Assembly (NCBI GenBank): GCA_964571945.1
Contig: CAZNFE010000001.1
Location: forward strand, 1-38,982
Length of the DNA: 38,982 bases
Origin: an uncultured Pseudomonadales bacterium
Lineage (GTDB): Bacteria; Pseudomonadota; Gammaproteobacteria; Pseudomonadales; Azotimanducaceae
Direction of reading: 5' to 3'
Shown here: in pieces, positions 6,211-35,661 of the stretch
Numbering within the stretch: position 1 is the stretch's first letter
Layout: the number at the start of each line of letters is the position of its first letter
Notes under the pieces: generated by a model
What the model saw: only the letters and a program-made list of their open reading frames with translations
What the model was told of the DNA's origin: nothing
The model's database searches: none
Made by a program: the position numbers and the translations under genes

Positions 6211-7245
6211 CTACCAGGATTCAGGCTCGAGGTCAAGCTCCTGGCCCCACTTTTTCGCCGGAACCAGGAACCTTCTTGAGCCCTTGCGGTGTTCGCTGTG
6301 CTTCCTCATCAGGTCGGCAAACTCAGGATGGTCACAGTAGCTCTCCGCAATGGACTTCCAGTCAACCTTCTTGCCGTCCGCGGCCTTCTTCCACGTGACC
6401 CTGAATTGCTTGCCCTTGATGCCCTCATGCTCGCCGATGCACTCTTTGAGCTTCTGGGCCTCTTTATCGTATTCGCGCTTCGCCCGCTCTGCGGCAAACC
6501 ACTTCTCCCGCAGGCTTGCCAGCAGGTAGTTCTCACGGTCGCCGGCCGCCAGCATCCCAAGCTTCGGTTCAATCAGTGACATATCAGGATCAGGCAGCGA
6601 ATCACCACATACGTATGTCTGCCAGAACTCACGCTCGGCATCGACCATCGTATCGATGAAGTCATCGTCCCGCTTGATGTGATAGACCCGAATGTCCATC
6701 TGGGCCATTACCTTGCGGATGAAGTCCTTTCGGACCCGCTGCTCCACCATGGCCACCAGACACTCAAAGACAATCTCATCCGCAATCAGCACGATGACAT
6801 CACACCAGTCCCGCTCAGTCACGAACATCTGGTGCTGCACCTGGATGTAGTAGTGGTCGGGGATCTCCTCAGTCTCCTCAGGACCCCATTCATGCGCCGC
6901 CCACTTGTTTGTAGTTTTGACCTCCACCAGGCCCAGCCGGCCAGTGAGCCCGTCAGGCGTACATCCCATCCAGGGCTCGGTCTTGCTCACCACGAACTTG
7001 CTTTTCCGCACCCGGTTGCCCGTAATCTTCCGGTACACGTTCAGGATCGACGCCTCCAGCAGCGTGCCCCTGGCTGTGAACTTCGAGCCGTTGTCCTGGT
7101 CTGGCAATTGCCCTTTCTTGTCCAGCGCCAGATCCAACCGCGTCCTCCATGGGCTCAGCCCAAGCGCAATAGGAGCGTCACTCGCGCCCATGTAACGCTT
7201 CCGCCGTTTCAGCCAATCTTCCCGCTCTACCTGCTCCGCACTCAT
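6211..7245 (-). CDS. YqaJ-type viral recombinase exonuclease (PD-(D/E)xK)
   Basis: RYMGASDAPIALGLSPWRT is the typical YqaJ N-terminal motif. TPDGL ... VEVKT is the nuclease core. AAGGAG lies 6 nt before ATG 7245. Confidence 0.85.
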   Translation of the reverse strand: MSAEQVEREDWLKRRKRYMGASDAPIALGLSPWRTRLDLALDKKGQLPDQDNGSKFTARGTLLEASILNVYRKITGNRVRKSKFVVSKTEPWMGCTPDGLTGRLGLVEVKTTNKWAAHEWGPEETEEIPDHYYIQVQHQMFVTERDWCDVIVLIADEIVFECLVAMVEQRVRKDFIRKVMAQMDIRVYHIKRDDDFIDTMVDAEREFWQTYVCGDSLPDPDMSLIEPKLGMLAAGDRENYLLASLREKWFAAERAKREYDKEAQKLKECIGEHEGIKGKQFRVTWKKAADGKKVDWKSIAESYCDHPEFADLMRKHSEHRKGSRRFLVPAKKWGQELDLEPESW

Positions 7246-7256
7246 TCCAATCTCCT

Positions 7257-7436
7257 TTATCCCTTCCAGCGCATGTATTTCGCAATCAGCCGCCGCAGCA
7301 ATCCCATGCGGCTTATCCCAAGTTTCTTGGCCCGCGCATCCAGTTGCCTCAGCTCCTTCTTTGTGAGGTACGCATAGGCCCGCTCGTCCTTTCGCTCGTC
7401 ATCAGGCAATCGAGGTCTTCCTACTCCAGCCATCAT
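7257..7436 (-). CDS. small ribbon-helix-helix DNA-binding protein (59 aa, below the ORF-track cutoff); paralog of 541..771
   Basis: My own translation: MMAGVGRPRLPDDERKDERAYAYLTKKELRQLDARAKKLGISRMGLLRRLIAKYMRWKG, ending at TAA 7259-7257. AAAGGAG lies just upstream. It is the first gene after the consensus promoter at 7464-7491. Confidence 0.6.
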   Translation of the reverse strand: MMAGVGRPRLPDDERKDERAYAYLTKKELRQLDARAKKLGISRMGLLRRLIAKYMRWKG

Positions 7437-7463
7437 TGCTCCTTTCTCTATAGTGCCTCATAT

Positions 7464-7491
7464 ATTATATACCGGGTTTATTGTGTGTCAA
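7464..7491 (-). promoter_or_regulatory. consensus sigma70 promoter (TTGACA-16-TATAAT)
   Basis: Minus strand reads TTGACA (7491-7486), a 16-nt spacer, then TATAAT (7469-7464), followed by RBS AAAGGAG and ATG 7436. It shares a 17-nt identical core AATAAACCCGGTATATA (7466-7482) with the promoter at 10901-10929. It overlaps the last codons of the HNH gene. Confidence 0.65.
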
Positions 7492-8062
7492 GAGGTTGTT
7501 GGATAATCAACCTACGCTGTCCAGTCCTGTCCAGCTTCTCCTTCCTGCGGCGCTCCGCGGCACGGGCCGCAACCTGAGCAGTGTCCAGCTTGTGGCACCG
7601 TATGCAAAGTGTCCGCAGGTTCTCGAGCTCATTGCCGCCGCCCTCGCTTACCGGGATGATGTGGTCTGCATCCCATATGTCACCGCGCCTGATGCACCAT
7701 TGGCGCTCCAGGCTTCTCTTGACATTGATCCACTCATAGATATTGTGCTCATTGGCCCATCGCCAAAGCGTATGGGTGGCGATGCGGTGCACCTCGCGCT
7801 TCTTTTCAGTGTCGAGCCCGCAGGCTGCGCATATTCCCTTGTCGCGCTCAAACACCTTAAAGCGGATATAACCCCAGTCAGTCAGGAGGCTGAAGCGATC
7901 CACGCATTCCTGACTGCACCAAGTTCGCCGGCCACGCCCAACCGGGCGGTCACAAAAGCAGCAGATTGGTTCACCATTGGACGTCACCCTGCCATAGATC
8001 CTCGTGATCTTCTGGCCCGTCCTGGGTGCGCGCGTCACAATCCTGCGTATCTTCTCGGTCAT
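7478..8062 (-). CDS. HNH endonuclease with N-terminal Cys-rich (zinc-ribbon-like) region
   Basis: CCFCDRP..WCSQEC lies at the N-terminus. ERDKGICAACG ... WDADHIIPVSEGGGNELENLRTLCIRCHK is a canonical HNH core. ATGA overlap with the upstream gene. Confidence 0.85.
   Translation of the reverse strand: MTEKIRRIVTRAPRTGQKITRIYGRVTSNGEPICCFCDRPVGRGRRTWCSQECVDRFSLLTDWGYIRFKVFERDKGICAACGLDTEKKREVHRIATHTLWRWANEHNIYEWINVKRSLERQWCIRRGDIWDADHIIPVSEGGGNELENLRTLCIRCHKLDTAQVAARAAERRRKEKLDRTGQRRLIIQQPLDTQ
7517..7534 (-). repeat. two exact 8-bp direct repeats (minus strand CTGGACAG) with 10-bp period, 25 nt upstream of the -35 at 7491
   Basis: Plus strand has ctgtccag at 7517-7524 and 7527-7534. It lies inside the 3' end of the HNH ORF. 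Position and periodicity match the repeat pair at 847-865 upstream of the paralogous RHH gene. Confidence 0.4.
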
Positions 8063-8289
8063 GTATCAGTCCTTCGGTCAATGACTTCTTCCAGCATAGC
8101 CGCATCAAACTCGCAGAACCGCCATGCGGCCTTGCGGAATATCTCGTCACCATGAATAGATGCCACCGCGTCATACACACCTGGTATCGCCAACAGGTCG
8201 CGCCCTGTCATGTCCTCGACTATCTCGCAGGCGCACTCCATCAGCAGTTCCCTGATTTGCCCGTCATATTGAGGTCCGTCATGTGGCAT
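8059..8289 (-). CDS. hypothetical protein (76 aa)
   Basis: ATG start. Tightly coupled to its neighbours, with an 11-nt overlap upstream and an ATGA overlap downstream. No recognisable motif. Confidence 0.5.
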   Translation of the reverse strand: MPHDGPQYDGQIRELLMECACEIVEDMTGRDLLAIPGVYDAVASIHGDEIFRKAAWRFCEFDAAMLEEVIDRRTDT

Positions 8290-8623
8290 ATGTCATCCTT
8301 TCAAGTTCATCGCGAGCTTCTTCCACTGTGCTCCCAAAGCCGGCAGGTGACTCTTGCAGGTTGATGAAATCAGGCATGACAGCACAGTATTGATCGCCGT
8401 CCATAAAAACCCGGCTTTTCGGGCCGCCGTGGTCCGGACAGGCCAGGGCAGGCACATAGCCATCAAAGCGAGTATTCGATCTGCGTCCGATAATCGCTTC
8501 TGGTCTCCCGTATGCTGGTTCGTTACAGAACCCATCAGGCATTCCCATGCACCACATAGGCACAGAACACTTGCCTATACCATCGACGTCCAGTTCCATG
8601 TGTTGCTTTCCGCAGCGTGCCAT
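8279..8623 (-). CDS. hypothetical Cys-rich protein (114 aa)
   Basis: Track start 8659 overlaps the ATPase gene. ATG 8623 lies 1 nt after the ATPase stop, behind GAAGGGAAGG. MARCGKQHMELDVDGIGKCSVPMWCMGMPDGFCNEP...ACPDHGG has multiple Cys/His. Family not recognised. Confidence 0.5.
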   Translation of the reverse strand: MARCGKQHMELDVDGIGKCSVPMWCMGMPDGFCNEPAYGRPEAIIGRRSNTRFDGYVPALACPDHGGPKSRVFMDGDQYCAVMPDFINLQESPAGFGSTVEEARDELERMTYAT

Positions 8624-8624
8624 C

Positions 8625-9938
8625 TTATACCTTCCCTTCCAATACCTGGCCATCTTCAATAATGACGCTCACCTCATCACCATCTGACACACGCTCTATC
8701 CACACCTGAGCCCCGGCCTCTTCGGACATATCCGAAATCATCTTCAGGTTGTCCTCATCCAGCAGGCTTCCGTCACGAATCAGCATCACCTTGAGCTTCG
8801 GGTTCAGTGAGATCCCCATGGCCAGGCTCACCCGCATCTGCTCAGCTGAGCTGCATTGGCTGAACGGCACGTCATTGTAGGTCACGCCATGCTCATTGAA
8901 TGACAGCCCCTCTACCGGGAACTTGGCGCTGGCCAGCAGCTCCTGCTTCTGCTTGTCGATCTTCTCCATGTCGCCCGTGAGAGTGTCCGCCTTCTTCTGC
9001 AGGCCTGCATGCTTATCGACCAGCTCATTCCGGCGCTGCTGCTGGGCCGCCCGCTCATTGGTGACCTCGGCCAGCTGGATCTGCTCGCGGATCTCCTGTG
9101 TGTCCTTGCTCTCCGTGGAGGCCGCTTGCTTGCGCATCTCATTCTCTTTCGATATGTGTTCTTCGGCGGCCTTCTCACGATCCTTGACAAACTCCCACTT
9201 CACATCGATGTCTTTCTTGAGCTGTTCGATATGCGCTTCGATTCCCTTGATTTCCTCCAGTGTTCGCTCATGATCTGTGATTGCCTGACCGGCCAGTTCT
9301 GCCTCACGGTCTGCATCCTGGAGCTTGTCATCCAGCTCGTCATTGAACGCTTGGCGCTTCTCCAGCTCGGCAAGCAAGTCAGTCACCGATACCGCCTTGA
9401 CATCGTCCTCCGGTATGGCGTCAATCTGCGCAGCCATGTCCTTCACCTGCCGGTTGACCACAGTGCGCTCGTCATACCGCTCCCCGTAGTCAATATCCAG
9501 CTGTGTCGTATCGACCCCAACCAGCTCACGTAGCGTTCTGGCCTGCTGCCGCTGCCCCTCCTTGCTGTTGCCCATGCGGGCGAACTCCAGGGGGTCGAAG
9601 CTCAGCGGTCCCACCAGGTCGTCCAGAATCGCCTGAGGGGACTTCAGCGTCCCGCATTCCTTTTTCTCGACGTTGATGTAGGAACCCTTCTTGGTGAACC
9701 GCCGCGTCACCACAAGCTCCTCAGTCTCCAGCACGATGCGCGCCTTGTCCTGCCCCTTGCGGATAGGCTCCTCTGCATTCGGCTTGCCCCCAAGCGCATA
9801 CTCGATGGAGTCCAGCAGGCTCGACTTCCCCTGAGCGTTCTTGCCGCCCACAATCACCACAGGCTTCCCGTCCGGGGAGATGCTCACGGCCTGCAACCTC
9901 TTCACGTTTTCCGCTTCCAGCTTCACAATCGTTGACAT
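8625..9938 (-). CDS. SMC/Rad50/RecF-like ABC-type ATPase with coiled-coil insertion
   Basis: Walker A is GGKNAQGKSS. A long heptad-rich middle follows (about residues 130-330). The C-terminus has the signature-like SSAEQMRVSLAMG and Walker B KVMLIRDGSLLD. Track start is TTG 9944. ATG 9938 follows GGAGGA. Confidence 0.75.
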   Translation of the reverse strand: MSTIVKLEAENVKRLQAVSISPDGKPVVIVGGKNAQGKSSLLDSIEYALGGKPNAEEPIRKGQDKARIVLETEELVVTRRFTKKGSYINVEKKECGTLKSPQAILDDLVGPLSFDPLEFARMGNSKEGQRQQARTLRELVGVDTTQLDIDYGERYDERTVVNRQVKDMAAQIDAIPEDDVKAVSVTDLLAELEKRQAFNDELDDKLQDADREAELAGQAITDHERTLEEIKGIEAHIEQLKKDIDVKWEFVKDREKAAEEHISKENEMRKQAASTESKDTQEIREQIQLAEVTNERAAQQQRRNELVDKHAGLQKKADTLTGDMEKIDKQKQELLASAKFPVEGLSFNEHGVTYNDVPFSQCSSAEQMRVSLAMGISLNPKLKVMLIRDGSLLDEDNLKMISDMSEEAGAQVWIERVSDGDEVSVIIEDGQVLEGKV

Positions 9939-9953
9939 ATCCAATCCTCCACG

Positions 9954-10031
9954 CTATTGAGCCATCACGGCCTGGACCACAGTGGCCAGTACCGCAACCG
10001 CTACGAACATCCAAAACATCCACATTCTCAT
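9954..10031 (-). CDS. possible 25-aa hydrophobic micro-protein
   Basis: My translation is MRMWMFWMFVAVAVLATVVQAVMAQ, then TAG. It fills the gap between two genes, and GAGGAAG lies about 10 nt upstream. It is too short to be confident. Confidence 0.25.
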   Translation of the reverse strand: MRMWMFWMFVAVAVLATVVQAVMAQ

Positions 10032-10064
10032 GGTTTTTCTTCTTCCTCATCACTGTAGAACACC

Positions 10065-10415
10065 CTATCGGTAAAGTCGTGTTGCGCCACAAAACTGTTC
10101 ATCATCTGGCCTGCATACCTCCAGCGTACCGAGGCAACAGCTCAGATCGTTATCGGCGTCAGTGACGATTCCCCAAAATTCCTCAGAGAATGGCCGCGGA
10201 GCAATGTTGCAATTATGCGTCATGCTCCAGTTTGCCGCGAATGATGTTGCCAGACGCGCCGCGATAGCGTGGCACGATACGTTGCGAGACTCCTCAACAT
10301 ATGCGTCTCGCGCTGTTCGCGACGAAAAAACCCTGACAATGGTATCGTTCGAAAATCCGTGGCTTGACTCATTGCCGTGGGCCGACTCCGCTGCAAAATA
10401 ACGTTTCTTTCCCAT
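10065..10415 (-). CDS. hypothetical protein (116 aa)
   Basis: ATG 10415 follows GAGGAGGAGTGAG. The track start 10460 lies further upstream. No recognisable motif. Confidence 0.55.
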   Translation of the reverse strand: MGKKRYFAAESAHGNESSHGFSNDTIVRVFSSRTARDAYVEESRNVSCHAIAARLATSFAANWSMTHNCNIAPRPFSEEFWGIVTDADNDLSCCLGTLEVCRPDDEQFCGATRLYR

Positions 10416-10510
10416 CTCACTCCTCCTCAAATATCTAATCCACCAGTTGGCTTGCCTCATCAGTGCGGCGGGAGCAACCCAACCGCAGACCGCCAGCAGG
10501 CGGTTTCGGC

Positions 10511-10858
10511 CTATTCAACCGTGCTGAGTAGTTCCTGCGTCTCGAAGTGTGCGGAAATGTCAATTACTGCAAACAGGTCAGTCAACTGTGCAGCAAGTGC
10601 TGTTGCAGTCATGTGTGATGTGGCATAGCCATAATACAGCCCGAACTCACGCGCACTATTAGGCGAGTGTTGCTCGCCAATCTGGATGTATGTGATGATA
10701 GCATCGGCAATGGCCTGGCGGCAAGCTTTGCAGAGTGCCCCGTTCTGTGCATGGGCAAACTGCAGGTCAAGCAGCTTCTTATATTCATCCATGAGTCCAA
10801 TGTGGTGGTCTGCCATGGCATGGTATTTCTGTGCGTTCGTGTCTGCGCTCGTCCACAT
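10511..10858 (-). CDS. hypothetical helical protein (115 aa), first gene after a consensus promoter
   Basis: ATG 10858 follows AAAGGAGAAAAAC. The track start 10894 would fall at the predicted transcription start itself. Confidence 0.55.
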   Translation of the reverse strand: MWTSADTNAQKYHAMADHHIGLMDEYKKLLDLQFAHAQNGALCKACRQAIADAIITYIQIGEQHSPNSAREFGLYYGYATSHMTATALAAQLTDLFAVIDISAHFETQELLSTVE

Positions 10859-10900
10859 GTTTTTCTCCTTTGCAAAAGTGGCTGTATTGTTCATACCCTA

Positions 10901-10929
10901 AATATATACCGGGTTTATTTAATTGTCAA
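10901..10929 (-). promoter_or_regulatory. consensus-like sigma70 promoter (TTGACA-17-TATATT) with A/T-rich upstream region
   Basis: Minus strand reads TTGACA (10929-10924), a 17-nt spacer, then TATATT (10906-10901). It shares the 17-nt core AATAAACCCGGTATATA (10903-10919) with 7466-7482. AATTTTTCAATAAAATA lies upstream of the -35 and looks UP-element-like. Confidence 0.65.
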
Positions 10930-10975
10930 GGCTTTTTCTGGTGTATTTTATTGAAAAATTAAGCTTCGCGTATAA

Positions 10976-11000
10976 GGCTACCAGAGTCCGTCTGGTGGCC
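10976..11000 (-). terminator. hairpin at the end of the late operon (terminator or operator; weak)
   Basis: Plus strand reads ggctaccaga-gtccg-tctggtggcc, a 10-bp stem. On the minus-strand RNA it has one C/A mismatch and no clean U tract, and is followed by an A/T-rich stretch. It lies between the late-operon stop (11039) and the promoter at 10929. Confidence 0.3.
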
Positions 11001-11038
11001 GTTTGTGGTAGGTGTGGCTTTGCTGCCCGGAAAGTTTC

Positions 11039-11752
11039 TTACGGTTTCTCGACAAGGAGGTAGATGATCTGCTCGTTCTCCACCACCCGCCGCACATGGG
11101 TTCCAATGACAGTCAGGCCAGCTGCCGTTACGGCATTGACCAGGCAGTCAGGGGTGAAATAGTGGAGGTGGTCTGCGTTCCCGAGGTCCTCGTCATCCGG
11201 AATCACTATGTATAGATGGCCGCCAGGCAGCACAAGGGACGCCATCTTGGTCAGGGCCGCATATGGATCAGCCATATGCTCCAGCACATGCAACCCCATG
11301 ACTAGTTTGAACTGCAAGTCAGTGGAATAATGTTCAAATGAGCCCGTCAGGATCTGAACGCAATATGTCTGGCGCATATACTCGGCCGCCCATCTGCTGG
11401 GCTCAACGGCGAAGTAGCGCATCTTGAGCCTAAGCATCCATGGAATGAGCCTCCCGGTACCGGCCCCAACCTCGATGCAATCACCGCCCTCGGTCGGGCT
11501 CCAGCCAATCGCCATCCATGCATCGAGCGACTCCATAATATATCCAAGATTCTGCGGGATACCATTATCATCGAATATTCCAAGGCTACGATAATACTCA
11601 AGGTCGGGCTCAGGATTGGTATATTTCCTGTGGTGGCTGCATATCTGTTTCTTATGCTTCAGACCGCATTGCCCGCAGATCTCAATTTCGCAGCCACAGG
11701 GAAGTTCCTTGAATGGCACCCATTGACATGAACAAATCATCACCTCCCCCAT
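11039..11752 (-). CDS. class I SAM-dependent methyltransferase with N-terminal Cys-rich zinc-ribbon-like segment
   Basis: CIEVGAGTGRL is motif I. YFAVEPS is the acidic motif II loop. LVMGLHVLEHMADP and LVLPGGHLYI resemble Methyltransf_11/23. The N-terminus CSCQW..CGCEIEICGQCG..CSHH is Cys-rich. Start is ATG 11752 (or 11740), overlapping the upstream stop. Confidence 0.8.
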   Translation of the reverse strand: MGEVMICSCQWVPFKELPCGCEIEICGQCGLKHKKQICSHHRKYTNPEPDLEYYRSLGIFDDNGIPQNLGYIMESLDAWMAIGWSPTEGGDCIEVGAGTGRLIPWMLRLKMRYFAVEPSRWAAEYMRQTYCVQILTGSFEHYSTDLQFKLVMGLHVLEHMADPYAALTKMASLVLPGGHLYIVIPDDEDLGNADHLHYFTPDCLVNAVTAAGLTVIGTHVRRVVENEQIIYLLVEKP

Positions 11753-14121
11753 CTCACACTCTCCCCTATCGTGTGCCATTTCGTTGTTCCTATTGCGATG
11801 TTCTCCTGCCTCCTGAGTGGGTACCATTGGTCATCCTTTCTGTCTTCGTGCTCGATGTGGTAGACGAGATCAGGCAACCGCTTCACCTTCTCGCATACTA
11901 CCTTCGCTCGGTCAAACAGCTCCCCATCTTCCCGCCCATAGCCATACATCCGCTCATCGTATCCACGAAGGGCATCCCAGTCATCTCGGTGGAGCGCCAT
12001 GGTCCCGACGCTCCTGCTTGGATGCTTGCCAGGCCCCAGGCGCTCTGGGCTGCTGGTGAGCATATAGTATGGGGCTTGTCCCTGTCCACGCACTACCAGA
12101 GGCAGCTTTTTCCAGAAGCCGGCGGTCAGCAGGCAGTCAATGTCAGTCTTTACCACCACCTCGCACTTGTCCTTGATGGCCTGGCGAATCCCGATGTTGC
12201 TCATGCGGCTCGGGCTGTAGATGCTCTGCCGGCCCACCACAACCTGTTTCACCATTGGGCCAATCTCCTTGGGGATGTCGCTCACCAGATATACCGTCAC
12301 CCCATGCTGCTCGAACTGCTCCACGTTCCAGGCCATGAACTCATAGAGGCGTTTCATGGGTAGCGCCACATGCGCAACCACCAGCCCGACCGCCATGCTT
12401 TTTTGGGGCTCCGGTGGACGCTGAGGAACTTCGGAGAGCTCACCCAGCTTAGGGCTTACCCTACCCTTCCAGTTGCGCTTGTAGGCCCCATGAGGCAGGT
12501 GAATCACATCGAACTCAGGGACTGGAAGACTCTTCACCTTCTCGGCCGGCCATGTCTTCATCCCAAACACCATATCGGCATATTCTGCCGTATTGTACTT
12601 CTCGTCATACCACCGCTCCCCAAGGCGGCCGATGCTCTTCGCCGCGGGATGCCAGAGCTGGAAATACCCATAGGGGAAGTGCTCAACGTCATTCCCCAAC
12701 CTGTCCGTCTTCCGCGCCTTGGTCTTGTTCGCATGCTTCCAGTATAGGTCATGCCATGTCATGCCCGCATCAAGGCCATCAAGGAATGGCGTGAGGTTCT
12801 CTTCCAATGGTCCCCATCTCTTGGTGTAGTAGAGCGCTCCTGGATTTAGCACATAGCCATTGATGCTCTCCATGAACCCATCAGGCAGGATGATGTCGGA
12901 GTCCAGGATGAGCACCCACTGGTTCTTGGGCAGCGTCCGCAGGCCGTCATTCATGCCCTTGGCCTTGTTGAATGGGGCTCCCCCCTCATGGATCCGATCT
13001 GAGATTATCACCTTCGCGCCATGCTTGCGCGCGATTTCCTGCGTTGCCTTGTCCTTGCTGGTAGTCACGACCGTAAAGCTATCCACCTCCTTGACGTTGC
13101 GTGCCAAGGTGATATCCAGATAGTCCGAATAGTTGACGCATACCGTGATTGCATTGACCTTCTTCTTATAGATGCTGGCCTCGGTGTTGCACTGCACCCG
13201 CGTCGTATTGTCACCATCGTCCGGCAGATACCATTCATAGTTCTTGGTATTGCGCTGGTACTCACCCTCATCGTAGGAGGCAGGGTCAAATGCCTGGAAT
13301 GTTCCACGTAGAACTTTCGGGCTCCCCACCTCCTTGAGCTTCTCGAGTAGCGCTGGGCTGATAATATCCTGGCTGGAATGCGCTTGCTTGCGCGGCACCG
13401 GCAGGCAGGCAGAGCAAAGCTCGCACCACTGGAGCTGGTCACCGAAATCCTCTGGCTTGCGGCGCCACCATCCCTCAACGATTGGCCATCCCCCGGGACC
13501 ATCAAATAGCATATCAAGCGCGCCAGCGACCTCACAAAAGAAGGCACCCTTTGGTGTTATGCTGGAACTCCATAAGTTCTGTATCCAGCATTCATCTCGG
13601 TATTTCACCCATTTCTCATCAGGTATCCCAAGCTCCTTCCTGGTGATGAGAAGCGCCTGGTGGAGGCCGGTATTGGTGTGGTCATTGATGCATTGGTAGC
13701 CGAACACGTCCTGGATGAGCTCATAGTGCTGAGCATAGCGTTTCCCAAGGCTTGTCCACAGTCCACGGCGATTTGTGTCCACCCGGTTGAGATTCTTGTT
13801 GCGGTGCTGGCAGAAGTCCTTGATCGGCTCAGCCACATCCCCGCGCAGCGGAACAGCAGGGATATGCTGCTGATAGATGTTGATGAGCTGCTCGAACTTG
13901 GGATGAATTGTAGGCTCACCACCCATCACCCCCACCATGCCTTTGTACCCATTCATCGACTTCACGGCCTGCTCAAAAGCCATCTCTTCCATGAAGTATG
14001 GTTTCTTGTGGTGGCCACAGAAACGCGTGCAATTCGCGCAACTATGCTGACATGCATTGGTGATATCGATCTGGATGATCTTCTGGTTTGCAGGTGACTT
14101 CATGTCTCGCTTGGCCTCCAT
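11740..14121 (-). CDS. triple-domain enzyme: radical SAM (CX3CX2C) + GT-A glycosyltransferase + second GT-A glycosyltransferase
   Basis: Residues 17-75, IQIDITNACQHSCANCTRFC...GVMGGEPTIHP, form a radical-SAM core with C24/C28/C31, and a further WCELCSAC lies at 232-239. Residues ~322-545, AITVCVNYSDY...WVLILDSDIILP, form a GT-A fold with a DxD motif. Residues ~575-760, GLVVAHVALP...VVVKTDIDCLL...YGYGREDGEL, form a second GT-A-like domain. An alternative ATG at 14103 makes an ATGA overlap with the sulfotransferase stop. Confidence 0.8.
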   Translation of the reverse strand: MEAKRDMKSPANQKIIQIDITNACQHSCANCTRFCGHHKKPYFMEEMAFEQAVKSMNGYKGMVGVMGGEPTIHPKFEQLINIYQQHIPAVPLRGDVAEPIKDFCQHRNKNLNRVDTNRRGLWTSLGKRYAQHYELIQDVFGYQCINDHTNTGLHQALLITRKELGIPDEKWVKYRDECWIQNLWSSSITPKGAFFCEVAGALDMLFDGPGGWPIVEGWWRRKPEDFGDQLQWCELCSACLPVPRKQAHSSQDIISPALLEKLKEVGSPKVLRGTFQAFDPASYDEGEYQRNTKNYEWYLPDDGDNTTRVQCNTEASIYKKKVNAITVCVNYSDYLDITLARNVKEVDSFTVVTTSKDKATQEIARKHGAKVIISDRIHEGGAPFNKAKGMNDGLRTLPKNQWVLILDSDIILPDGFMESINGYVLNPGALYYTKRWGPLEENLTPFLDGLDAGMTWHDLYWKHANKTKARKTDRLGNDVEHFPYGYFQLWHPAAKSIGRLGERWYDEKYNTAEYADMVFGMKTWPAEKVKSLPVPEFDVIHLPHGAYKRNWKGRVSPKLGELSEVPQRPPEPQKSMAVGLVVAHVALPMKRLYEFMAWNVEQFEQHGVTVYLVSDIPKEIGPMVKQVVVGRQSIYSPSRMSNIGIRQAIKDKCEVVVKTDIDCLLTAGFWKKLPLVVRGQGQAPYYMLTSSPERLGPGKHPSRSVGTMALHRDDWDALRGYDERMYGYGREDGELFDRAKVVCEKVKRLPDLVYHIEHEDRKDDQWYPLRRQENIAIGTTKWHTIGESVRWGR

Positions 14122-14735
14122 TCCTCAAATAACTCCAACTCTGGCTCTAAGCCAAGGAACTCCGAAAGCATGCTGAGCGATTCCGGGATCTTCTCATATT
14201 GAACAATGCGCGCATTATCGCTCCATTCGGTCCGCCGATACATCTTATCATATAGATCCCGCATCCGACTGATATCTTCATTATAGAATCCGAAGTGCTT
14301 ACGTATCGACCGCTGATTTGCCATCTCATCACGCTGCATTATCACCAGCCGGTAGTCATCAAAAAGATTTGATTCATCCACATATTGGGACAAAAGTCCC
14401 TCATCAAATTCATGGTCTGGGCATTTGCTCACGAGGTTTGGCTTGCTTTGGTCTAGACCGCCTATGGCCAATCCATCAATTACCCCGGCGCCACGATGGA
14501 TGAAGCTGTGGGTCGCGTATCGCCCGATTTCGATGAGTTGATCGCCCAAGGCATGACCAGTGAGCGGCACTGAATCATAGCCATCACGATGCCATTTGGA
14601 GAACCATCTGGTTTCCAGGAGCTTGTGAAGGCCCTGCTCCTCAGCCCCGCCAGTGCATTGCTCATGTAATCGAAGTTGATTCAGCATAAACGTGGTTCCA
14701 CTTCTATGAAACCCCGTTATGTATATCAAGCGCAT
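14100..14735 (-). CDS. PAPS-dependent sulfotransferase family protein
   Basis: IYITGFHRSGTTFMLNQL is the 5'-phosphosulfate-binding loop (xRSGTT). VIMQRDEMANQRSIRKH is 3'-phosphate-binding RDxxxxxxS-like. GGGAGGAAACCA precedes ATG 14735. Confidence 0.75.
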   Translation of the reverse strand: MRLIYITGFHRSGTTFMLNQLRLHEQCTGGAEEQGLHKLLETRWFSKWHRDGYDSVPLTGHALGDQLIEIGRYATHSFIHRGAGVIDGLAIGGLDQSKPNLVSKCPDHEFDEGLLSQYVDESNLFDDYRLVIMQRDEMANQRSIRKHFGFYNEDISRMRDLYDKMYRRTEWSDNARIVQYEKIPESLSMLSEFLGLEPELELFEEWRPSET

Positions 14736-14756: not shown

Positions 14757-15722
14757 CTATTCTGCCAGGGTGTCAGGTATGGTTTCACTGCCCCCTATAT
14801 CATATGGCAACACTATATCGAGGTTATCACGGAACCATGATTGAATCACGCCGTCATCCGTCACCACAGCCGCTGCCATCTCATATTTATCGCTAGCAAC
14901 ATAGGGGATGAGAAGTGTGATTTCGATATCAGCATCAGTGCCAAGAGCAGCAATGTTGATACTACCAGCCAGCCCTGAACTATTCTGTTCAGTGATGGTT
15001 AGGTCGCCGATGGCAGTATAGGTTCCATCGAATACCCGATTTGTGTCAGCCGTCCTATCAGCTGAACTTTTATGGGCACGAATTGTATAGGTCGGGCCGC
15101 CAGAGATATCGATATATACTTTGCCATTAGCATCACAGTTGCTTGACCGCACGCCGCCGGTGATTGGGATGGCCGTCGGGTTGCCAATCAGGCCACCGCC
15201 ATCATTCGCTACTGCACTGGCTGGCGCATTGATCGTGAACTCGATTCCGGCCTGGTCAGTATCACCCTCATATAGCGTCCCAGTCGTCGCGCGATTGCTC
15301 AATAGACCGCGGCGCATTGTCCTCACTGTCCATTGGTCACTTCCGGCGGAGACGTATTCAAGCTCAATCACATCATCATTGAGTAACATTTGGCTTGGAG
15401 TCACCTGTCCGAGCGTAGGCACCCCATTATCCTGGATTGAACCAGTGCCCTCACCTGTGAACGAGATGGCACCAGCCGTTACTGAGTTTCCATCAACGGT
15501 CTGGCTGTCATCATCCATGCGTGATTTCAATATGGCGTAGAGGTCCGAGAGACTCGTCTCAACAGCCTCAGCAACATATTTGAAATTGTATTGGATATAC
15601 GATTGTACCCAATTGATGCTCTGTATGAGCATCTCAGTCGCATTTGTGCTGTTAGCATTCGCCTCTTTGATTGCCTTGCCGATGCTGCCGAACACACCAC
15701 CGGAGCCCCATGTGATTGCCAT
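14757..15722 (-). CDS. distal tail / receptor-binding-position protein (hypothetical)
   Basis: Third gene after the tape measure. Gly/Thr/Ser-rich and beta-type in composition. AGGAGGG lies 7 nt before the ATG. Confidence 0.5.
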   Translation of the reverse strand: MAITWGSGGVFGSIGKAIKEANANSTNATEMLIQSINWVQSYIQYNFKYVAEAVETSLSDLYAILKSRMDDDSQTVDGNSVTAGAISFTGEGTGSIQDNGVPTLGQVTPSQMLLNDDVIELEYVSAGSDQWTVRTMRRGLLSNRATTGTLYEGDTDQAGIEFTINAPASAVANDGGGLIGNPTAIPITGGVRSSNCDANGKVYIDISGGPTYTIRAHKSSADRTADTNRVFDGTYTAIGDLTITEQNSSGLAGSINIAALGTDADIEITLLIPYVASDKYEMAAAVVTDDGVIQSWFRDNLDIVLPYDIGGSETIPDTLAE

Positions 15723-15737
15723 TGAAATACCCTCCTG

Positions 15738-17150
15738 TTATGGCGTTTGATATCCCTGAGCTATTGTTCCACCTGTGCTTGCTGTGGCCTGAGTAAGTAA
15801 GAAATCGGCATCGACAGTCCCTGATTGAAAAAGGCCCTCTGAAACAGCATAGATCCGTATACCGTTTATCGGGTAGCTTAGGAAGCTGTCGTTACTGTCA
15901 AAAGTTGCGAATGCCTGATCCTTTGATTCATAACGATCTCCGGCATTTGTATATCTGTCGCGATAGTGAAGCGGTGCAATGGATCTCTTAATTGCCCCGT
16001 TTGTATTTCTCAGATCAATATATATTTTGAATCCTTTAGCAGAACCTGTACTGCTCAGTGTATAATCTGTTGTTAATGTCCATACGCCAATATTATATAA
16101 CCAGAAAAATCCAGCATGATATTGCATCTGGACACTATTGACATTAACCCATGCACTTGCTCCGGCCCAAGGCAGTGATTGACTGCTGAGATTGATTTCT
16201 GGCTGCCCAGTCATGGTGAATCCAAAAGAGATTACATTCCCACCAGAGACTGTAGATGCCTTAAAAGGGCGGGGGCGCGCCAGACCTCCGAGCTGGCCCA
16301 TACAGCGGAAGCCTGTGTTGTCTTTTGCCATAGTCCAGGCGCCACTGACAGTTCCAATGTCATCACCGGTTGCGGGCGAGCCAGTCACGGTCACCAACGC
16401 GAGCTTATTCACATCGCCCGGGAAAAAGCATAGGCCTGTATCATTCGCTACAATCGAACGTGGAATAATCACCACCTCATTGAGGTTGTCAGCGGTCGGC
16501 TTGACTACCGTATAGGTGAGGATGCCATTCAGCTCTATCAGGCCGGTGATTTCGGCCGCGCTGTTGTCAGGTATGGTTTGGCCTGAATCATTACGGCATT
16601 GGATCTCATCGACTGCTGATTTGCCAAGCTCAACGATTGCCCATGTGGTACCGGTTGTGGCCTGCTGCCAGAGAATCCTATTGTTCCCAGTTGCGATTGT
16701 TTCCAGCCGATATGTCCCGCTGCTCGCACTTAGGGTGACGTACATGTCCTCAGCATTGTTCACCACCACTTGCGTCACTACCGGGCCAGCAATGATCGCC
16801 CTTGCTATATCTCCACTGTTCAGCGGCTCAGCCAATACAGCAAAAAGATCTTCTTCACTGGAGAAGGTACCTTGCTCAAAGACCAACCGCTGCCGCAGAA
16901 ACTCCAGGTCTTCCGGTACTGTCCCGGGGTCGGTTGCCAGTGGATCACCGATGGCAACAATATCGCCAATATCAAGCGTATCACCAATGCCCCGCAGGTA
17001 GATCTCATTCACCTTGTCTGCAGTGCTAAACCCACCGGTTGATATGTTGGTCTCATTGACCTTGCGGATCGTATCAATCATCGCATTGTAGACAGGAGCA
17101 GGGAAGCTGAATGGATCGCCCGGGCGTACCTTCTTCTCAATATCTGCCAT
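15738..17150 (-). CDS. tail-associated protein in the Tal position (hypothetical, 470 aa)
   Basis: Second gene after the tape measure, with a TAATG junction to the upstream gene. No catalytic motif recognised. Confidence 0.5.
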   Translation of the reverse strand: MADIEKKVRPGDPFSFPAPVYNAMIDTIRKVNETNISTGGFSTADKVNEIYLRGIGDTLDIGDIVAIGDPLATDPGTVPEDLEFLRQRLVFEQGTFSSEEDLFAVLAEPLNSGDIARAIIAGPVVTQVVVNNAEDMYVTLSASSGTYRLETIATGNNRILWQQATTGTTWAIVELGKSAVDEIQCRNDSGQTIPDNSAAEITGLIELNGILTYTVVKPTADNLNEVVIIPRSIVANDTGLCFFPGDVNKLALVTVTGSPATGDDIGTVSGAWTMAKDNTGFRCMGQLGGLARPRPFKASTVSGGNVISFGFTMTGQPEINLSSQSLPWAGASAWVNVNSVQMQYHAGFFWLYNIGVWTLTTDYTLSSTGSAKGFKIYIDLRNTNGAIKRSIAPLHYRDRYTNAGDRYESKDQAFATFDSNDSFLSYPINGIRIYAVSEGLFQSGTVDADFLLTQATASTGGTIAQGYQTP

Positions 17151-17977
17151 TATGGATTCAACCTTGAAAAGTCAGTCAGCTTGTAGACCTTCTCCACATA
17201 GACATACTTCGGCTTCATGATGTTGAACTTCTTGCCAGCGGACTCAATCACCTCCTCGGTGAACCTGGCCCACACATATTCCCAACCCCTATGGGTCACG
17301 TTGGTGAAGTCCGGGAACCGCGGGTCACTGGTGACATTCTCACGCACGCTGAACGTGAATGTGATTTCCCAATCATCTTCACCTCTGGCTGATCCGCTCG
17401 CCCCATCAAATCTCACCTCACCAGCGGAGAAGCTGCGGAAAGATGATTGATTTACTGTACCCGTGAGGTCCCGCAACGTTTTCTTGTATGCATCAGTTAC
17501 CTTGTCAGCGTCAATATAATGCGTTTCGCTGAACGTGTAGGTAGGCACGAGGATATCAACACCCTGCACTCCGTCCTTGGTCACACCGATGGTCTGCTTC
17601 ATATCCGGTGCAGCTGAACCACTGCCATCGTAGGATGCTATGGTCTGCAGGCTATTATTGATATGCTCAGTTGCTCCGCCGGTATTGAAGCTGAATGAGC
17701 TTTCACCAGTATCAGGTGATGTTGCTCTGACACCATATGTTACCTCAGCTCTCCATCGCTCGGTATCAGTTGGGTCACCATCTGGAGTGATAGACCAGCT
17801 CGTCCTCACCAATTGATTGAAGCCAACAGTCCAGTATACAGGAGTATTGGCCCGCACATATTCCGAGGCAACGCTTTCATCGCCGGTTCCGGTCACGATA
17901 TATTTCGTCGTACCAGATGAATCATCGCCCATAGAGAAATCTCGGCTATCAAAGAGTTCCTGAATCGCGAGTATCAT
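17150..17977 (-). CDS. distal tail protein (Dit)-position protein (275 aa)
   Basis: Lies immediately downstream of the tape measure (3-nt gap). Assigned by synteny only. Confidence 0.5.
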   Translation of the reverse strand: MILAIQELFDSRDFSMGDDSSGTTKYIVTGTGDESVASEYVRANTPVYWTVGFNQLVRTSWSITPDGDPTDTERWRAEVTYGVRATSPDTGESSFSFNTGGATEHINNSLQTIASYDGSGSAAPDMKQTIGVTKDGVQGVDILVPTYTFSETHYIDADKVTDAYKKTLRDLTGTVNQSSFRSFSAGEVRFDGASGSARGEDDWEITFTFSVRENVTSDPRFPDFTNVTHRGWEYVWARFTEEVIESAGKKFNIMKPKYVYVEKVYKLTDFSRLNP

Positions 17978-29766: not shown

Positions 29767-29774
29767 ACCATCCT

Positions 29775-29815
29775 CCAAACGAAAACGGGGGGAAGGGGAG
29801 ATTCCCCCTCCCCCC
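29775..29815 (-). terminator. GC-rich intrinsic terminator/attenuator immediately after the major capsid gene
   Basis: Minus strand reads GGGGGGAGGGGG-AATCT-CCCCTTCCCCCC, with 11 of 12 positions paired, followed by GTTTTCGTTT. It lies in the 72-nt gap between the capsid stop (29839) and the connector start. Confidence 0.6.
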
Positions 29816-35486: not shown

Positions 35487-35661
35487 CGTCATCCCCATGC
35501 TTAACATATCGTGCTGCCCTCAAGTCAACACTATCAACCGTCCATCTATCAATGACCCTGAGTGCTTCTCCCTCTGTTTGAAACGCCCCGAGGCTTCCCA
35601 TCACAGACCATTCATCATCACCATAGCGCGCTTCAATCATCCAGATGCCTCGTGTTGTCAT
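35479..35661 (-). CDS. hypothetical small acidic protein (60 aa; 53 aa if started at 35640)
   Basis: ATG 35661 follows GAGGGGCCAA. An alternative ATG at 35640 lies in a GATGATTGAAGC junction identical to the one at 35486. Confidence 0.45.
   Translation of the reverse strand: MTTRGIWMIEARYGDDEWSVMGSLGAFQTEGEALRVIDRWTVDSVDLRAARYVKHGDDDD

Follow-up and report, generated by a model that had tools for sequence, protein, structure and literature searches.

A phage-encoded protein with a radical SAM domain and two GT-A glycosyltransferase domains, a candidate glycan-building enzyme

A gene in the window (the whole stretch of 38,982 nucleotides analysed here) encodes a single polypeptide which consists of a radical SAM (rSAM) core and two separate GT-A units. 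The protein is encoded by a tailed phage, and it belongs to a conserved family which occurs in phage virion-gene modules and in bacterial surface-sugar gene clusters. The function that we somewhat favour is that of a three-domain enzyme which would build a glycan and whose rSAM domain would tailor a sugar by radical chemistry, with virion proteins slightly preferred as the acceptor.

This architecture, which an earlier reading of the bare DNA (the sequence-only reading) had put forward, is confirmed by domain scans, structure prediction and fold searches. The AlphaFold2 model of the whole protein (mean pLDDT 88.8, pTM 0.76) shows three confident domains, at residues 7-300, 320-556 and 575-793. 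The weak stretches of the model are limited to residues 300-320 (the inter-domain linker, pLDDT 76-79), 561-572 (a linker), 726-729 and the final six residues. The motifs named in that reading are all present: C24/C28/C31, GGEP (67-70), CELCSAC (233-239), DSD (407-409), TDID (659-662) and YGYGREDGE (726-734). It had also proposed to check the conservation of the cysteine triad and of both DxD motifs, and the alignments bear this conservation out (see the table). Its interpretation is supported overall.

In the ORF listing of the window, the gene lies within an uninterrupted 793-codon ORF on the minus strand (11740..14121); residue numbers are counted from M1 of this mechanical ORF, as in the earlier reading. 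Barring a few homologs with N-terminal extensions, the alignments of the 120 listed homologs start at a query residue of at least 7. The ATG of M7 (14103-14101) shares an ATGA with the stop codon of the sulfotransferase gene, a GGAGG lies 11 nt upstream, and the gene called independently on a contig of 99% identity is also 787 aa long. Therefore, M7 at 14103 is most likely the start, the protein has 787 aa and the gene extends over 11740..14103.

A separate JGI assembly (L169) contains the intact gene, at 99% identity and with the same neighbours, and five full-length homologs from other samples (P0002-P0006), which are 48-54% identical, retain the uninterrupted fusion gene. Since independent sequences keep it, the fusion is not an assembly or frameshift artefact, and no frameshift splits the ORF. 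The view that the fusion is such an artefact, or that at least one domain is degenerate and non-catalytic, is largely refuted and keeps hardly any probability. The Pfam scores of the rSAM and GT2 parts, which are under the gathering thresholds, and the substitution of D407 and D409, which affects roughly 17-20% of the wider family, would fit this view, but besides the unbroken ORF in these other sequences, invariance extends to all the cluster ligands, the GGEPT motif and all the catalytic motifs of the second GT-A domain, and each of the three domains has a highly confident model.

Table. Features of the gene and its neighbours, with residue ranges, window coordinates, strand and basis of assignment
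Feature	Residues	Position	Strand	Basis
rSAM-GT-A-GT-A gene, 787 aa from probable start M7		11740..14103	-	
Radical SAM domain with twitch-type extension	7-300	13222..14103	-	Pfam/PHROG rSAM matches, model, Foldseek
CX3CX2C, predicted SAM-binding [4Fe-4S] ligands	C24, C28, C31	14029..14052	-	invariant in 111/111 homologs
GGEPT, SAM-binding 'GGE' element	67-71	13909..13923	-	invariant in 111/111 homologs
Putative auxiliary [4Fe-4S] site	C178-x13-G192-x3-C196 ... C233-x2-C236	13414..13590	-	invariant Cys and G192, model
GT-A domain 1	320-556	12454..13164	-	weak Pfam GT2, invariant residues, tandem GT-A fold matches
DxD of GT-A domain 1	D407-S-D409	12895..12903	-	D407 92/111, D409 88/111; both invariant in alignment A4
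GT-A domain 2, GT7-like	575-793	11743..12399	-	Pfam, PDB profile, Foldseek
DxD of GT-A domain 2	D660-I-D662	12136..12144	-	invariant in 8/8 module-bearing sequences
YGYGREDGE, counterpart of the B4GalT WGWGGEDDD catalytic-base loop	726-734	11920..11946	-	alignment with B4GalT1 GWGGEDDD
Sulfotransferase gene, 211 aa, upstream in cassette		14100..14735	-	Pfam Sulfotransfer_3, E 4.7e-8; stop overlaps rSAM-GT start
Class I SAM methyltransferase gene, Cys-rich N-terminus, 233 aa from probable start, downstream		11039..11740	-	Pfam Methyltransf_23, E 1.1e-14

The N-terminal domain matches Pfam Radical_SAM at residues 20-87 (E 1.7e-5, with a score of 25.5 which is below the gathering score of 29.5) and rSAM profiles in a PHROG search, and it is modelled alone with a pLDDT of 92 and a pTM of 0.91. 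The cysteine triad is located in ITNACQHSCANCTRFC. The 111-sequence alignment contains further invariant blocks in this domain (RGLWTSLG, INDH..G.H, ITPKGAFFCE and GPGGWP). The best Foldseek match is SpeY (E 3e-8, TM about 0.5 over about 300 columns, rmsd about 10 Å) and BtrN is found at E 2e-5; both outrank the peptide-modifying SPASM enzymes. CteB, EpeE, SuiB and anSME are among the fold matches, at E 8e-4 to 1e-2. The sequence likeness to SpeY, BtrN and Tes is confined to the first ~80 residues. Function is not reliably predictable inside the SPASM/twitch class (PMC6231123).

The domain probably has one auxiliary cluster. C178, G192, C196, C233 and C236 are invariant in the 111-sequence alignment. 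The sequence-only reading had singled out CELCSAC: C233 and C236 stand, as part of a four-cysteine twitch site with C178 and C196, whereas C239 is not conserved (62/111). Between the cysteines of the site, the AlphaFold2 model shows a β-hairpin (185-194) and a helix (197-205); cysteines which flank a β-hairpin and a helix are the layout of the auxiliary-cluster site in the definition of the twitch domain (PMC6231123). A HMMER alignment pairs C233/C236 with C232/C235 of BtrN, whose Cys4-ligated auxiliary cluster has been proposed to act as electron acceptor while an alcohol is oxidised by two electrons (PMC9012708, PMC10337720). A second auxiliary cluster was not found: only four extra cysteines are invariant in the 111 homologs.

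The first GT-A domain gives weak Pfam GT2-type matches at residues 325-429, under the gathering threshold, and has no significant sequence match among solved glycosyltransferases (best E 0.009). In the alignment of 17 sequences of this domain (A4), D357, K386, W402, D407, D409, G485, Q488, D516 and H541 are invariant, and the domain carries a family-specific GYFQL motif. Weak sequence resemblance is seen to GmaR (E 0.035) and to domain 1 of PBCV-1 A64R (E 0.075), both of which glycosylate proteins. The second GT-A domain matches Pfam Glyco_transf_7C at residues 706-758 (E 1.1e-7, over the gathering score) and the PDB profiles of B4GalT1 (E 3.9e-5) and B4GalT7 (E 7.8e-5), which Foldseek also retrieves. 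K-T-D-x-D, GYDER, G[YF]GREDG and H..H (HxxH) are invariant in all 8 sequences that have the C-terminal module, and a stand-alone homolog of this domain exists (P0121, 207 aa). By fold, the tandem GT-A part resembles K4CP, PmHS2, LH3 and LARGE1; K4CP, PmHS2, LARGE1 and CHSY3-CHPF are top Foldseek matches over 560-600 columns (E 3e-14 to 1e-9).

The presence of LH3 among the top fold matches (E about 1e-10) is compatible with a different order of events, in which the rSAM domain modifies a side chain of a protein and the GT-A domains then glycosylate that protein, as an anaerobic analogue of the LH3 logic. The occurrence of CteB, EpeE, SuiB and anSME among the rSAM fold matches, the faint resemblance of the first GT-A domain to GmaR and A64R, and the structural-module context in phages all agree with this scheme. 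We nevertheless regard it as improbable: the peptide enzymes score orders of magnitude below the carbohydrate and cyclitol dehydrogenases SpeY and BtrN, the protein has neither a RiPP-recognition element nor a second auxiliary cluster, its cellular homologs lie in polysaccharide clusters and not in RiPP clusters, and the LH3 match is accounted for by the two GT-A domains of LH3 alone.

The sequence-only reading recognised this domain order from no characterised enzyme, and the searches agree. The whole protein has no match among PDB sequences or GenBank phage sequences, no NCBIfam model comes near its cut-off, and a literature search returned no relevant paper on such a domain order; no characterised relative was found by sequence, profile or literature search. 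Multi-GT proteins of a Gordonia phage and of giant viruses are among the fold matches in BFVD. A signal peptide or membrane segment is absent, the most hydrophobic stretch of 20 residues containing 13 hydrophobic ones.

The rSAM domain is fused to the first GT-A domain in 174 of the 248 sampled family members (about 70%), most of which bear this domain as their one GT-A. Among the matches listed, 39 of 80 viral loci have a GT-A domain that is fused or at most three genes away, and all 39 fall in the 62 loci (L089-L150) with matches at E <= 4e-34. The 39 include 6 loci in which a stand-alone homolog of the first GT-A domain adjoins the rSAM gene. The rSAM module stands alone in many phages, so that the triple fusion represents one of the architectures within a wider family and not a unique event. 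The fusion and fission of the rSAM and first GT-A domains across many genomes indirectly support the channelling of an unusual sugar, which the earlier reading had suggested and which can reasonably be inferred.

The gene is translationally coupled to the sulfotransferase and methyltransferase genes. The start of the latter lies in a TGATG stop/start overlap, preceded by GGAGG. The sulfotransferase/rSAM-GT arrangement is repeated in L169, and a Methyltransf_23 gene is also alongside the fusion in L001 and L170/L171. The cassette comes after the genes of the distal tail in the window, in L001 and in L169; in L170/L171, it directly precedes the terminase genes on their upstream side. In 7 podovirus-like contigs, the P22-type coat gene and the SU10-type adaptor gene enclose a GT and rSAM pair. 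Nucleotide-sugar synthesis genes are absent from the window. The window also encodes Lar and a BrxP-like PAPS-reductase-domain protein.

In cells, the main types among the 124 genes around 15 homologs are GT2 (21), NDP-sugar epimerases/dehydratases (10), GT1 (6), Polysacc_synt_2 (6), RmlC (4) and RmlA (4), and the homologs in L002 and L003 have Wzx, pyruvyl transferase and capsule genes nearby. The contexts point in two directions regarding the acceptor: in cells the homologs lie in polysaccharide clusters, in phages they lie in structural modules. In mycobacteriophages, cassettes of glycosyltransferases and an O-methyltransferase glycosylate the capsid and the tail tube (PMC11600133).

It is possible, if less probable than a virion acceptor, that the same chemistry serves a host envelope polysaccharide (the repeat unit of an O-antigen, capsule or EPS on a lipid carrier). 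The surface of the host would then be remodelled, for instance to prevent superinfection or to keep the progeny from re-adsorbing to debris. The surface-polysaccharide clusters that contain the cellular homologs (with Wzx, GT2, GT4, Rml, pyruvyl transferase and capsule synthesis genes) are in line with such a target; a protein without a signal peptide or membrane segment fits glycan assembly on the cytoplasmic face, and morons commonly occupy the slot behind the tail fibre genes. However, the scanned ORFs of the window show neither an integrase nor a repressor, so that classical lysogenic conversion is unsupported, and the coat-adaptor interval that houses the GT and rSAM pair in the 7 podovirus-like contigs is inside a tightly packed structural operon. 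The known seroconverting phage glycosyltransferases are mostly membrane-linked Gtr-type systems, and the protein is not of this type.

Very unlikely is a third target, phage DNA or nucleotides, which the enzyme would hypermodify with a glycan against restriction, the rSAM domain tailoring a base-linked sugar. In a large phage (L004), the homolog P0120 is found among DNA-metabolism genes, with a thymidylate kinase on one side and an N6/N4 DNA methyltransferase on the other. Pyle et al. are said to have described in 2024 phage glycosyltransferases which build multi-sugar glycans on DNA. Lar and the BrxP-like protein can also be counted in favour of this target. Against it, the ORFs of the window that were scanned show no dNMP hydroxymethylase, thymidylate-synthase-like gene or phage DNA polymerase, the cassette belongs to the late structural operon and not to the replication module, and polysaccharide clusters house the cellular homologs.

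Returning to the glycan-building enzyme that we favour, we infer catalytic activity, the kind of radical chemistry, the order of the steps and the acceptor as follows. Each GT-A domain would take a nucleotide-sugar and a divalent metal, the metal being held by its DxD motif plus a histidine, and transfer the sugar onto the growing glycan; the second domain would be an inverting, β-1,4-galactosyltransferase-like transferase. The rSAM domain would be an active twitch-type enzyme, whose CX3CX2C cluster cleaves SAM to produce the 5'-deoxyadenosyl radical. The hydrogen which this radical abstracts would come from a carbon of a sugar, in either the substrate or the product of the attached transferase, and the second electron would pass to the fully Cys-ligated auxiliary [4Fe-4S] cluster. 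The net outcome would most likely be the conversion of a sugar hydroxyl into a ketone, as with BtrN and SpeY; epimerisation or a related radical tailoring seems less likely. Given the coupling to the sulfotransferase and SAM methyltransferase genes, the product of the cassette would be a short sulfated or methylated glycan, made late in infection, and phage virion proteins would be slightly preferred over the host envelope glycan as its acceptor.

The rSAM domain shares with SpeY (PDB 7wzv/7wzx) and BtrN (PDB 4m7t) the partial TIM-barrel core, CX3CX2C and GGE, and, in the C-terminal β-hairpin and helix, a single auxiliary site with one cysteine on either side of the hairpin and a CxxC farther along the chain. 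Both enzymes act on carbohydrate-like substrates, and BtrN catalyses the two-electron oxidation of an alcohol to a ketone (PMC9012708). However, sequence likeness is seen only in about 80 N-terminal residues (E 0.002-0.03) with a TM of about 0.5, the motif is CX13GX3C instead of the canonical CX9-15GX4C, and SpeY and BtrN are stand-alone enzymes of antibiotic pathways whereas the present rSAM domain is covalently joined to glycosyltransferases.

The bifunctional tandem GT-A enzymes K4CP (2z86, from E. coli K4), PmHS2 (8vh7, from Pasteurella), LARGE1 and CHSY3-CHPF similarly have two DxD-bearing GT-A domains per chain, one with a Glyco_transf_7C-type catalytic loop. Their identity with the protein is 10-14%, with no sequence-level match, and they have no radical SAM domain. 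K4CP is a chondroitin polymerase and PmHS2 a heparosan synthase, a polymerase role for which the present protein gives no evidence. The second GT-A domain resembles the GT7 enzymes B4GalT1 and B4GalT7 in its DxD, in GYGREDGE (GWGGEDDD in B4GalT1) and in HIEHE (HIRHS), over about its last 80 residues; it is a soluble bacterial/phage domain, whereas the B4GalTs are Golgi type II membrane proteins.

The capsid-glycan enzyme A064R of chlorovirus PBCV-1 unites a methyltransferase domain with two GT domains. Like the present cassette, A064R and the GT and O-methyltransferase operons of cluster O/F mycobacteriophages combine virus-encoded soluble GT-A domains with methylation, with or near structural genes. 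They have neither a radical SAM domain nor a sulfotransferase, and the homology is at the fold level only. LH3/PLOD3, which has no sequence relationship to the protein, also combines GT-A domains and an oxidising domain in one chain, but this domain is a C-terminal O2/2-oxoglutarate dioxygenase acting on lysine in LH3 and an N-terminal radical SAM domain in the phage protein.

The open reading frame at 11740..14121 (minus strand) runs uninterrupted for 793 codons. The motifs that a sequence-only reading had picked out lie at the numbered residues (counted from M1 of this frame): C24, C28 and C31, GGEP at 67-70, CELCSAC at 233-239, DSD at 407-409, TDID at 659-662 and YGYGREDGE at 726-734. That reading had proposed a single polypeptide joining a radical SAM (rSAM) core to two glycosyltransferase (GT) domains, hereafter the rSAM-GT-GT protein, and the fusion withstood a check for frameshifts and misassembly: a separate JGI assembly (L169, 99% identity) contains one intact gene with identical neighbours, and five full-length homologs from other samples (48–54% identity) retain the fusion. 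An assembly or frameshift artefact is essentially excluded. Homolog alignments start at query residue 7; the ATG codon of this residue (M7) forms an ATGA overlap with the stop of the preceding gene and has a GGAGG 11 nt upstream; and an independent gene call on the 99%-identical contig gives a protein of 787 aa. Thus, the gene most likely starts at M7.

The AlphaFold2 model of the protein, built on 111 homologs, shows three globular parts (pLDDT 88.8, pTM 0.76), and its confidence dips to 76–79 over about residues 300–320 and to 53 over about residues 561–572. Mapping of the domains with AlphaFold2 and Foldseek (PDB) assigns the N-terminal third to an rSAM fold (match to the twitch rSAM dehydrogenase SpeY) and the remaining two-thirds to tandem GT-A domains, in agreement with the domain order first read from the sequence.

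The three cysteines of the CX3CX2C motif (C24, C28 and C31), whose conservation had been an open point, are invariant in 111 of 111 homologs. GGEPT (67-71), G64, H148, H154, C178, G192, C196, C233 and C236 are also invariant in this alignment. At the sequence level, the domain is a divergent member of the radical SAM superfamily: the Pfam model Radical_SAM (PF04055) covers residues 20-87 only and stays below threshold (E 1.7e-5, 25.5 bits for a gathering score of 29.5), and the NCBIfam matches are all to rSAM models and all far below threshold. The PHROGs matched by the whole protein are rSAM and galactosyl-transferase families. When residues 7-318 are modelled separately (pLDDT 92, pTM 0.91), all Foldseek matches with E ≤ 1e-3 are rSAM enzymes, as are almost all of the 40 best. 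SpeY ranks first (E 3e-8, TM 0.47–0.51 over ~300 columns) and BtrN second (E 2e-5); the SPASM/twitch enzymes that modify peptides, CteB, EpeE, SuiB and anSME, come lower, with E between 1e-3 and 1e-2, as do GDGT-MAS, AbmM, DesII and BlsE. With a TM of about 0.5, the modelled domain is a moderate match to SpeY. The sequence similarity to solved rSAM enzymes is limited to the first ~80 residues (GDGT-MAS, E 3e-4; SpeY, 2e-3; BtrN, 0.03), and the profile similarity to SpeY and BtrN spans about residues 10–85 only. The domain therefore forms a distinct rSAM lineage, which resembles BtrN and SpeY yet stands outside their families.

A twitch domain consists of a hairpin followed by a helix, with a cysteine before and another after the hairpin, a conserved glycine and further ligands downstream; it is a shortened version of the SPASM motif, CX9-15GX4C-gap-CX2C... 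(PMC6231123). The 111 homologs share the invariant layout C178-x13-G192-x3-C196, with C233-x2-C236 downstream. In the AlphaFold2 model, C178 lies just before a β-hairpin (strands 185-189 and 192-194) and C196 directly follows the hairpin, where helix 197-205 begins. The predicted arrangement of cysteines, hairpin and helix is that of a twitch domain, whereas the spacing CX13GX3C departs from the canonical GX4C of SPASM/twitch proteins. Since only four additional cysteines are invariant, a single auxiliary cluster site is predicted, and the seven-cysteine SPASM motif is absent. The cysteines other than the predicted cluster ligands vary (C35 is present in 65, C144 in 94 and C239 in 62 of the 111 sequences). 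A HMMER alignment, which is not significant alone, sets C233 and C236 opposite C232 and C235 of BtrN. BtrN oxidises a cyclitol alcohol to a ketone in a two-electron reaction, and its auxiliary cluster, ligated by four cysteines, is proposed to take up the second electron (PMC10337720, PMC9012708). Predicting function within the SPASM/twitch subclass is difficult (PMC6231123).

Other assignments of the rSAM domain were considered and rejected. A cobalamin-dependent C-methylase would call for a B12-binding domain, and there is none in the protein; a glycyl-radical activase would call for a partner enzyme, and none was found, while a twitch domain is present. The similarity to viperin, which could have indicated an antiviral or anti-defence enzyme, is generic and N-terminal only (pVip/PADLOC, E 0.002, residues 8-78 only; NCBIfam viperin, 13 bits for a cut-off of 180). 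Similarly, the weak NCBIfam and PDB matches to the 5'-deoxyadenosyl-adding enzymes ArsS, HpnH and Tes are confined to the cluster-binding N-terminus.

The closest structures to the tandem GT-A part in the PDB (Foldseek) include the chondroitin polymerase K4CP (E 2.7e-14), PmHS2, LH3, CHSY3-CHPF, LARGE1 and COLGALT1, and the final domain on its own matches β-1,4-galactosyltransferases. A phmmer search of the PDB sequences with the whole protein gave no match. The first GT-A domain (GT-A#1, residues 320-556) reaches no Pfam GT threshold: GT2-type models align weakly over residues 325-429, with 14–15 bits for cut-offs of 23–27. A profile search of the PDB returned no significant match to a solved structure (the best E-values were those of MpgS, 0.009, GmaR, 0.035, and PBCV-1 A64R, 0.075). 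Both DxD motifs noted earlier proved conserved, D407xD409 in an alignment of 17 GT-A#1 sequences which includes a stand-alone phage homolog, and D660xD662 of the second domain (GT-A#2) in 8 of 8 sequences. The other invariant residues of GT-A#1 in the 17-sequence alignment are D357, K386, W402, P427-G428, G485 and Q488 of a GYFQL block, D516 and H541, a set that is typical of metal-dependent GT-A enzymes. With its GYFQL motif, GT-A#1 appears to represent a GT-A lineage that has not been described.

GT-A#2 (residues 575-793) matches the Pfam model Glyco_transf_7C (PF02709) over residues 706-758 (E 1.1e-7, 31.9 bits for a gathering score of 23). Its motifs K-T-D-x-D, GYDER, G[YF]GREDG and H..H are invariant in 8 of 8 sequences, a small set because the search for homologs of the C-terminal module yielded a single stand-alone protein, of 207 aa. 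Profile comparison with the PDB gives B4GalT1 (E 3.9e-5) and B4GalT7 (E 7.8e-5), and the residue-level alignment places GYGREDG opposite GWGGEDDD of B4GalT1, and HIEHE opposite HIRHS. GT-A#2 looks like an inverting transferase of the GT7/GT2 type and, judging from their conserved motifs, both GT-A domains look catalytically competent.

A profile search of 1.84 billion representative proteins (clusters at 50% identity) returned 339 proteins with E ≤ 1e-30 and 645 with E ≤ 1e-10. The rSAM match is shared by 248 family members, a sample biased toward the close relatives of the query. Of these, 174 combine rSAM with GT-A#1 (12 of them also have GT-A#2), 56 have a different C-terminal extension and 18 lack any C-terminal partner (16 consist of the rSAM module alone, and 2 have an N-terminal extension only). 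In a few homologs, other domains are fused: Methyltransf_24 (PF13578) in P0103 (816 aa), PF18922 in P0058 and P0118, and PF19668 in P0065. The methyltransferase fusion of P0103 echoes the frequent Methyltransf_24 neighbour of the phage loci.

More than 60 IMG/VR contigs encode the rSAM module, mostly as a stand-alone protein of 270–330 aa. Of the 80 viral loci returned, 39 have a GT-A domain fused to it or encoded no more than three genes away, and these 39 are all within the 62 loci with matches of E ≤ 4e-34 (L089-L150). The neighbours in the viral loci, annotated by basic ORF calling and a few family scans, include a stand-alone GT-A#1 homolog (6 loci), a 261-aa protein with a DxD motif (14 loci), Glyco_tranf_2_4 (10 loci) and a Methyltransf_24 gene (20 loci). 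This pattern of fusion and fission across loci argues that the rSAM and GT activities share one pathway.

The window represents a siphovirus-like phage, either as a complete genome or as a fragment of one, and every scanned gene with a family match is on the minus strand. The rSAM-GT-GT gene lies directly after the distal tail genes, in a cassette with a sulfotransferase gene and a Methyltransf_23 gene. The cassette genes overlap stop to start, as ATGA (sulfotransferase/rSAM-GT-GT) and TGATG (rSAM-GT-GT/Methyltransf_23). No integrase or repressor was detected among the scanned ORFs of the window, and DNA and protein searches found no relative of this phage among GenBank phages.

Features of the window, in descending coordinates where these are available
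Feature	Position	Strand
Second rSAM-like ORF (287 aa)	37912-38775	-
ORF of 527 aa	36339-37922	-
ORF with N-terminal Lar domain	35633-36118	-
Portal	32306-34348	-
Protease/scaffold-like	30998-32290	-
Major head protein	29839-30993	-
Head-tail adaptor	29209-29778	-
Protein of 940 aa	25300-28122	-
Tape measure	17980-21093	-
Three distal tail/fibre-sized genes, without annotation	14757-17977	
Sulfotransferase (Sulfotransfer_3)	14100-14735	-
rSAM-GT-GT gene (most likely start at M7)	11740-14103	-
Methyltransf_23 gene	11039-11740	-
PAPS_reduct-domain protein (267 aa)	2283-3086	-
Recombination/replication module (AAA_23 SbcC-like, HNH, RecE-like exonuclease, DUF1376, DnaC-like loader, resolvase)		-

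Several other genes of the window deserve mention. The methyltransferase of the cassette has a Cys-rich N-terminus (CSCQW..CGCEIEICGQCG..CSHH) resembling a zinc ribbon; the gene probably begins with the ATG at 11740, which overlaps the rSAM-GT-GT stop, and not at 11827 as in the ORF list. The PAPS_reduct-domain protein (Pfam E 1.9e-21; BREX BrxP model, E 3.6e-18) is encoded by the same phage as the sulfotransferase, which would need PAPS. The second rSAM-like ORF has a CX3CX2C motif of its own (CPNDCWFC) and matches phrog_9298 (E 2.5e-10) and, weakly, Pfam Radical_SAM; it was rejected as a relative of the rSAM-GT family, having no similarity to the family or to any ORF of the fetched loci. The Lar restriction-alleviation domain is recognised with a Pfam E of 1.4e-7. 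The 940-aa protein gives weak matches to tail-fibre and tail-protein PHROGs and is encoded between the head genes and those tail genes that precede the tape measure, an odd site for a fibre-like protein. No terminase large subunit was recognised among the scanned ORFs; the 527-aa ORF, which has no Pfam or PHROG match, could encode a highly divergent terminase; alternatively, part of the genome could be missing from the contig.

In a related phage (L001) the gene occupies the same slot, between a Methyltransf_24 gene on its upstream side and a Methyltransf_23 gene on its downstream side. In a T7-like phage (L170/L171), Methyltransf_23 and a 993-aa rSAM-GT-GT gene lie just upstream of the terminase genes, and seven podovirus-like contigs have GT-like and rSAM genes between P22-type coat and SU10-type adaptor genes.

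Some large phages show other neighbourhoods. In one of them (L004, 10001-11623), the rSAM-GT-A#1 homolog P0120 is encoded between a thymidylate kinase and an N6/N4 DNA methyltransferase, near an intein-containing RecD2-like helicase, RuvC and RecA, a DNA-metabolism context which departs from the structural-module pattern. Four AT-rich contigs (L123, L124, L126 and L127, about 6945-11062) encode a stand-alone rSAM homolog of 272 aa, with an RNA ligase on one side and a Thg1-like tRNA-His guanylyltransferase homolog on the other; within three genes of it, no GT gene was detected.

The cellular carriers include Beta- and Deltaproteobacteria, Lachnospiraceae, Anaerotruncus, Sporofaciens, Selenomonadaceae, Desulfospira, Acidobacteriaceae, Thermodesulfovibrio, Scalindua and Planctomycetia, and also PVC-group MAGs, and their homologs are located in polysaccharide loci. 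Two cultivable carriers are Anaerotruncus sp. G3 and Sporofaciens musculi (loci L012 and L013). The commonest Pfam families among 124 neighbours in 15 cellular loci are GT2 (21), Epimerase (10), GDP_Man_Dehyd (9), GT1 (6), Polysacc_synt_2 (6), RmlC (4) and RmlA (4), and none of the top 25 is a phage family. Individual loci also contain Wzx, pyruvyl transferase, capsule-synthesis and Glyphos_transf genes. Three genes in the polysaccharide locus of the cellular homolog P0106 stand out (L002, 569-2284, 4725-7166 and 8433-9986): two encode further radical SAM/SPASM proteins, and C2185-like_N (PF22674) is present in one of these and, weakly, in a separate 813-aa protein. Radical SAM chemistry may be used repeatedly in this glycan pathway.

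The best-supported reading, whose catalytic part we infer, is that the rSAM-GT-GT protein is a glycan assembler with radical tailoring of a sugar. The two GT-A domains would assemble a short glycan, and the twitch rSAM domain would tailor a sugar of that glycan, or of its nucleotide-sugar precursor. The precedents of BtrN and SpeY suggest that a hydroxyl is most likely oxidised to a ketone, and the Cys4 auxiliary cluster would serve as the electron sink. The product would then be decorated by the enzymes of the adjacent sulfotransferase and methyltransferase genes. The fold ranking, the association with GT-A domains and the polysaccharide context in cells point to a carbohydrate substrate; that the rSAM domain acts on a protein side chain instead, following an LH3-like logic, is a minor rival.

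If the product is a glycan, it is quite possible, at somewhat short of an even chance, that the acceptors are virion proteins. They are favoured by the late-operon and coat-adjacent positions of the genes, by the absence of a detected lysogeny module and by the mycobacteriophage precedent, in which cassettes of GT and O-methyltransferase genes glycosylate capsids and tail tubes (PMC11600133); DNA glycosylation is a minor rival to this proposal. A lipid-linked envelope glycan, to which the polysaccharide contexts of the cellular homologs point, is only slightly less likely as the acceptor.

The component parts of the protein, a twitch rSAM, a GT-A and a GT7-like domain, are known. Their combination matched nothing among the curated family models or solved structures searched, and the literature search found no paper on it or on a family of rSAM-GT fusions. 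The BFVD contains many viral proteins with multiple GT-A domains, and none of the 50 best matches is described with a radical SAM domain. We see in the protein two lineages that have not been described, one of rSAM and one of GT-A, coupled in a single chain. The conserved family is widely distributed among phages and anaerobes and lends itself to direct testing. A broader proposal, which we think rather unlikely, is that it represents a new class of enzymes in which a twitch rSAM domain is hard-wired to a GT, so that a sugar would be oxidised or rearranged while the glycan is being built; in phages, such enzymes would form the core of an oxygen-independent virion glycosylation, placing sulfated or methylated keto-sugar glycans on capsid or tail proteins.

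The family is found where glycan structure decides phage-host recognition, in surface-polysaccharide loci and in phage structural modules. If the rSAM domain modifies the sugar of the attached transferase, the family would add radical reactions to the known means of assembling polysaccharides and glycoproteins. Unusual sugars (keto, epimerised or bridged) would then be expected in the glycans of anaerobes and their phages, virion glycosylation would extend past actinophages and giant viruses, and the protein would offer a compact one-chain system for studying how glycosyl transfer and radical tailoring are coupled.

To our knowledge, no oxygen-independent virion-glycosylation system with such glycans has been described for viruses of anaerobes, and the characterised radical SAM enzymes that tailor sugars, as far as we know, are all stand-alone and belong to antibiotic or cofactor pathways. 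The rSAM-GT-GT protein has no sequence-level relation to K4CP or PmHS2, and most members of the rSAM family are without GT-A#2, but it shares with these two enzymes the arrangement of two GT-A domains in tandem.
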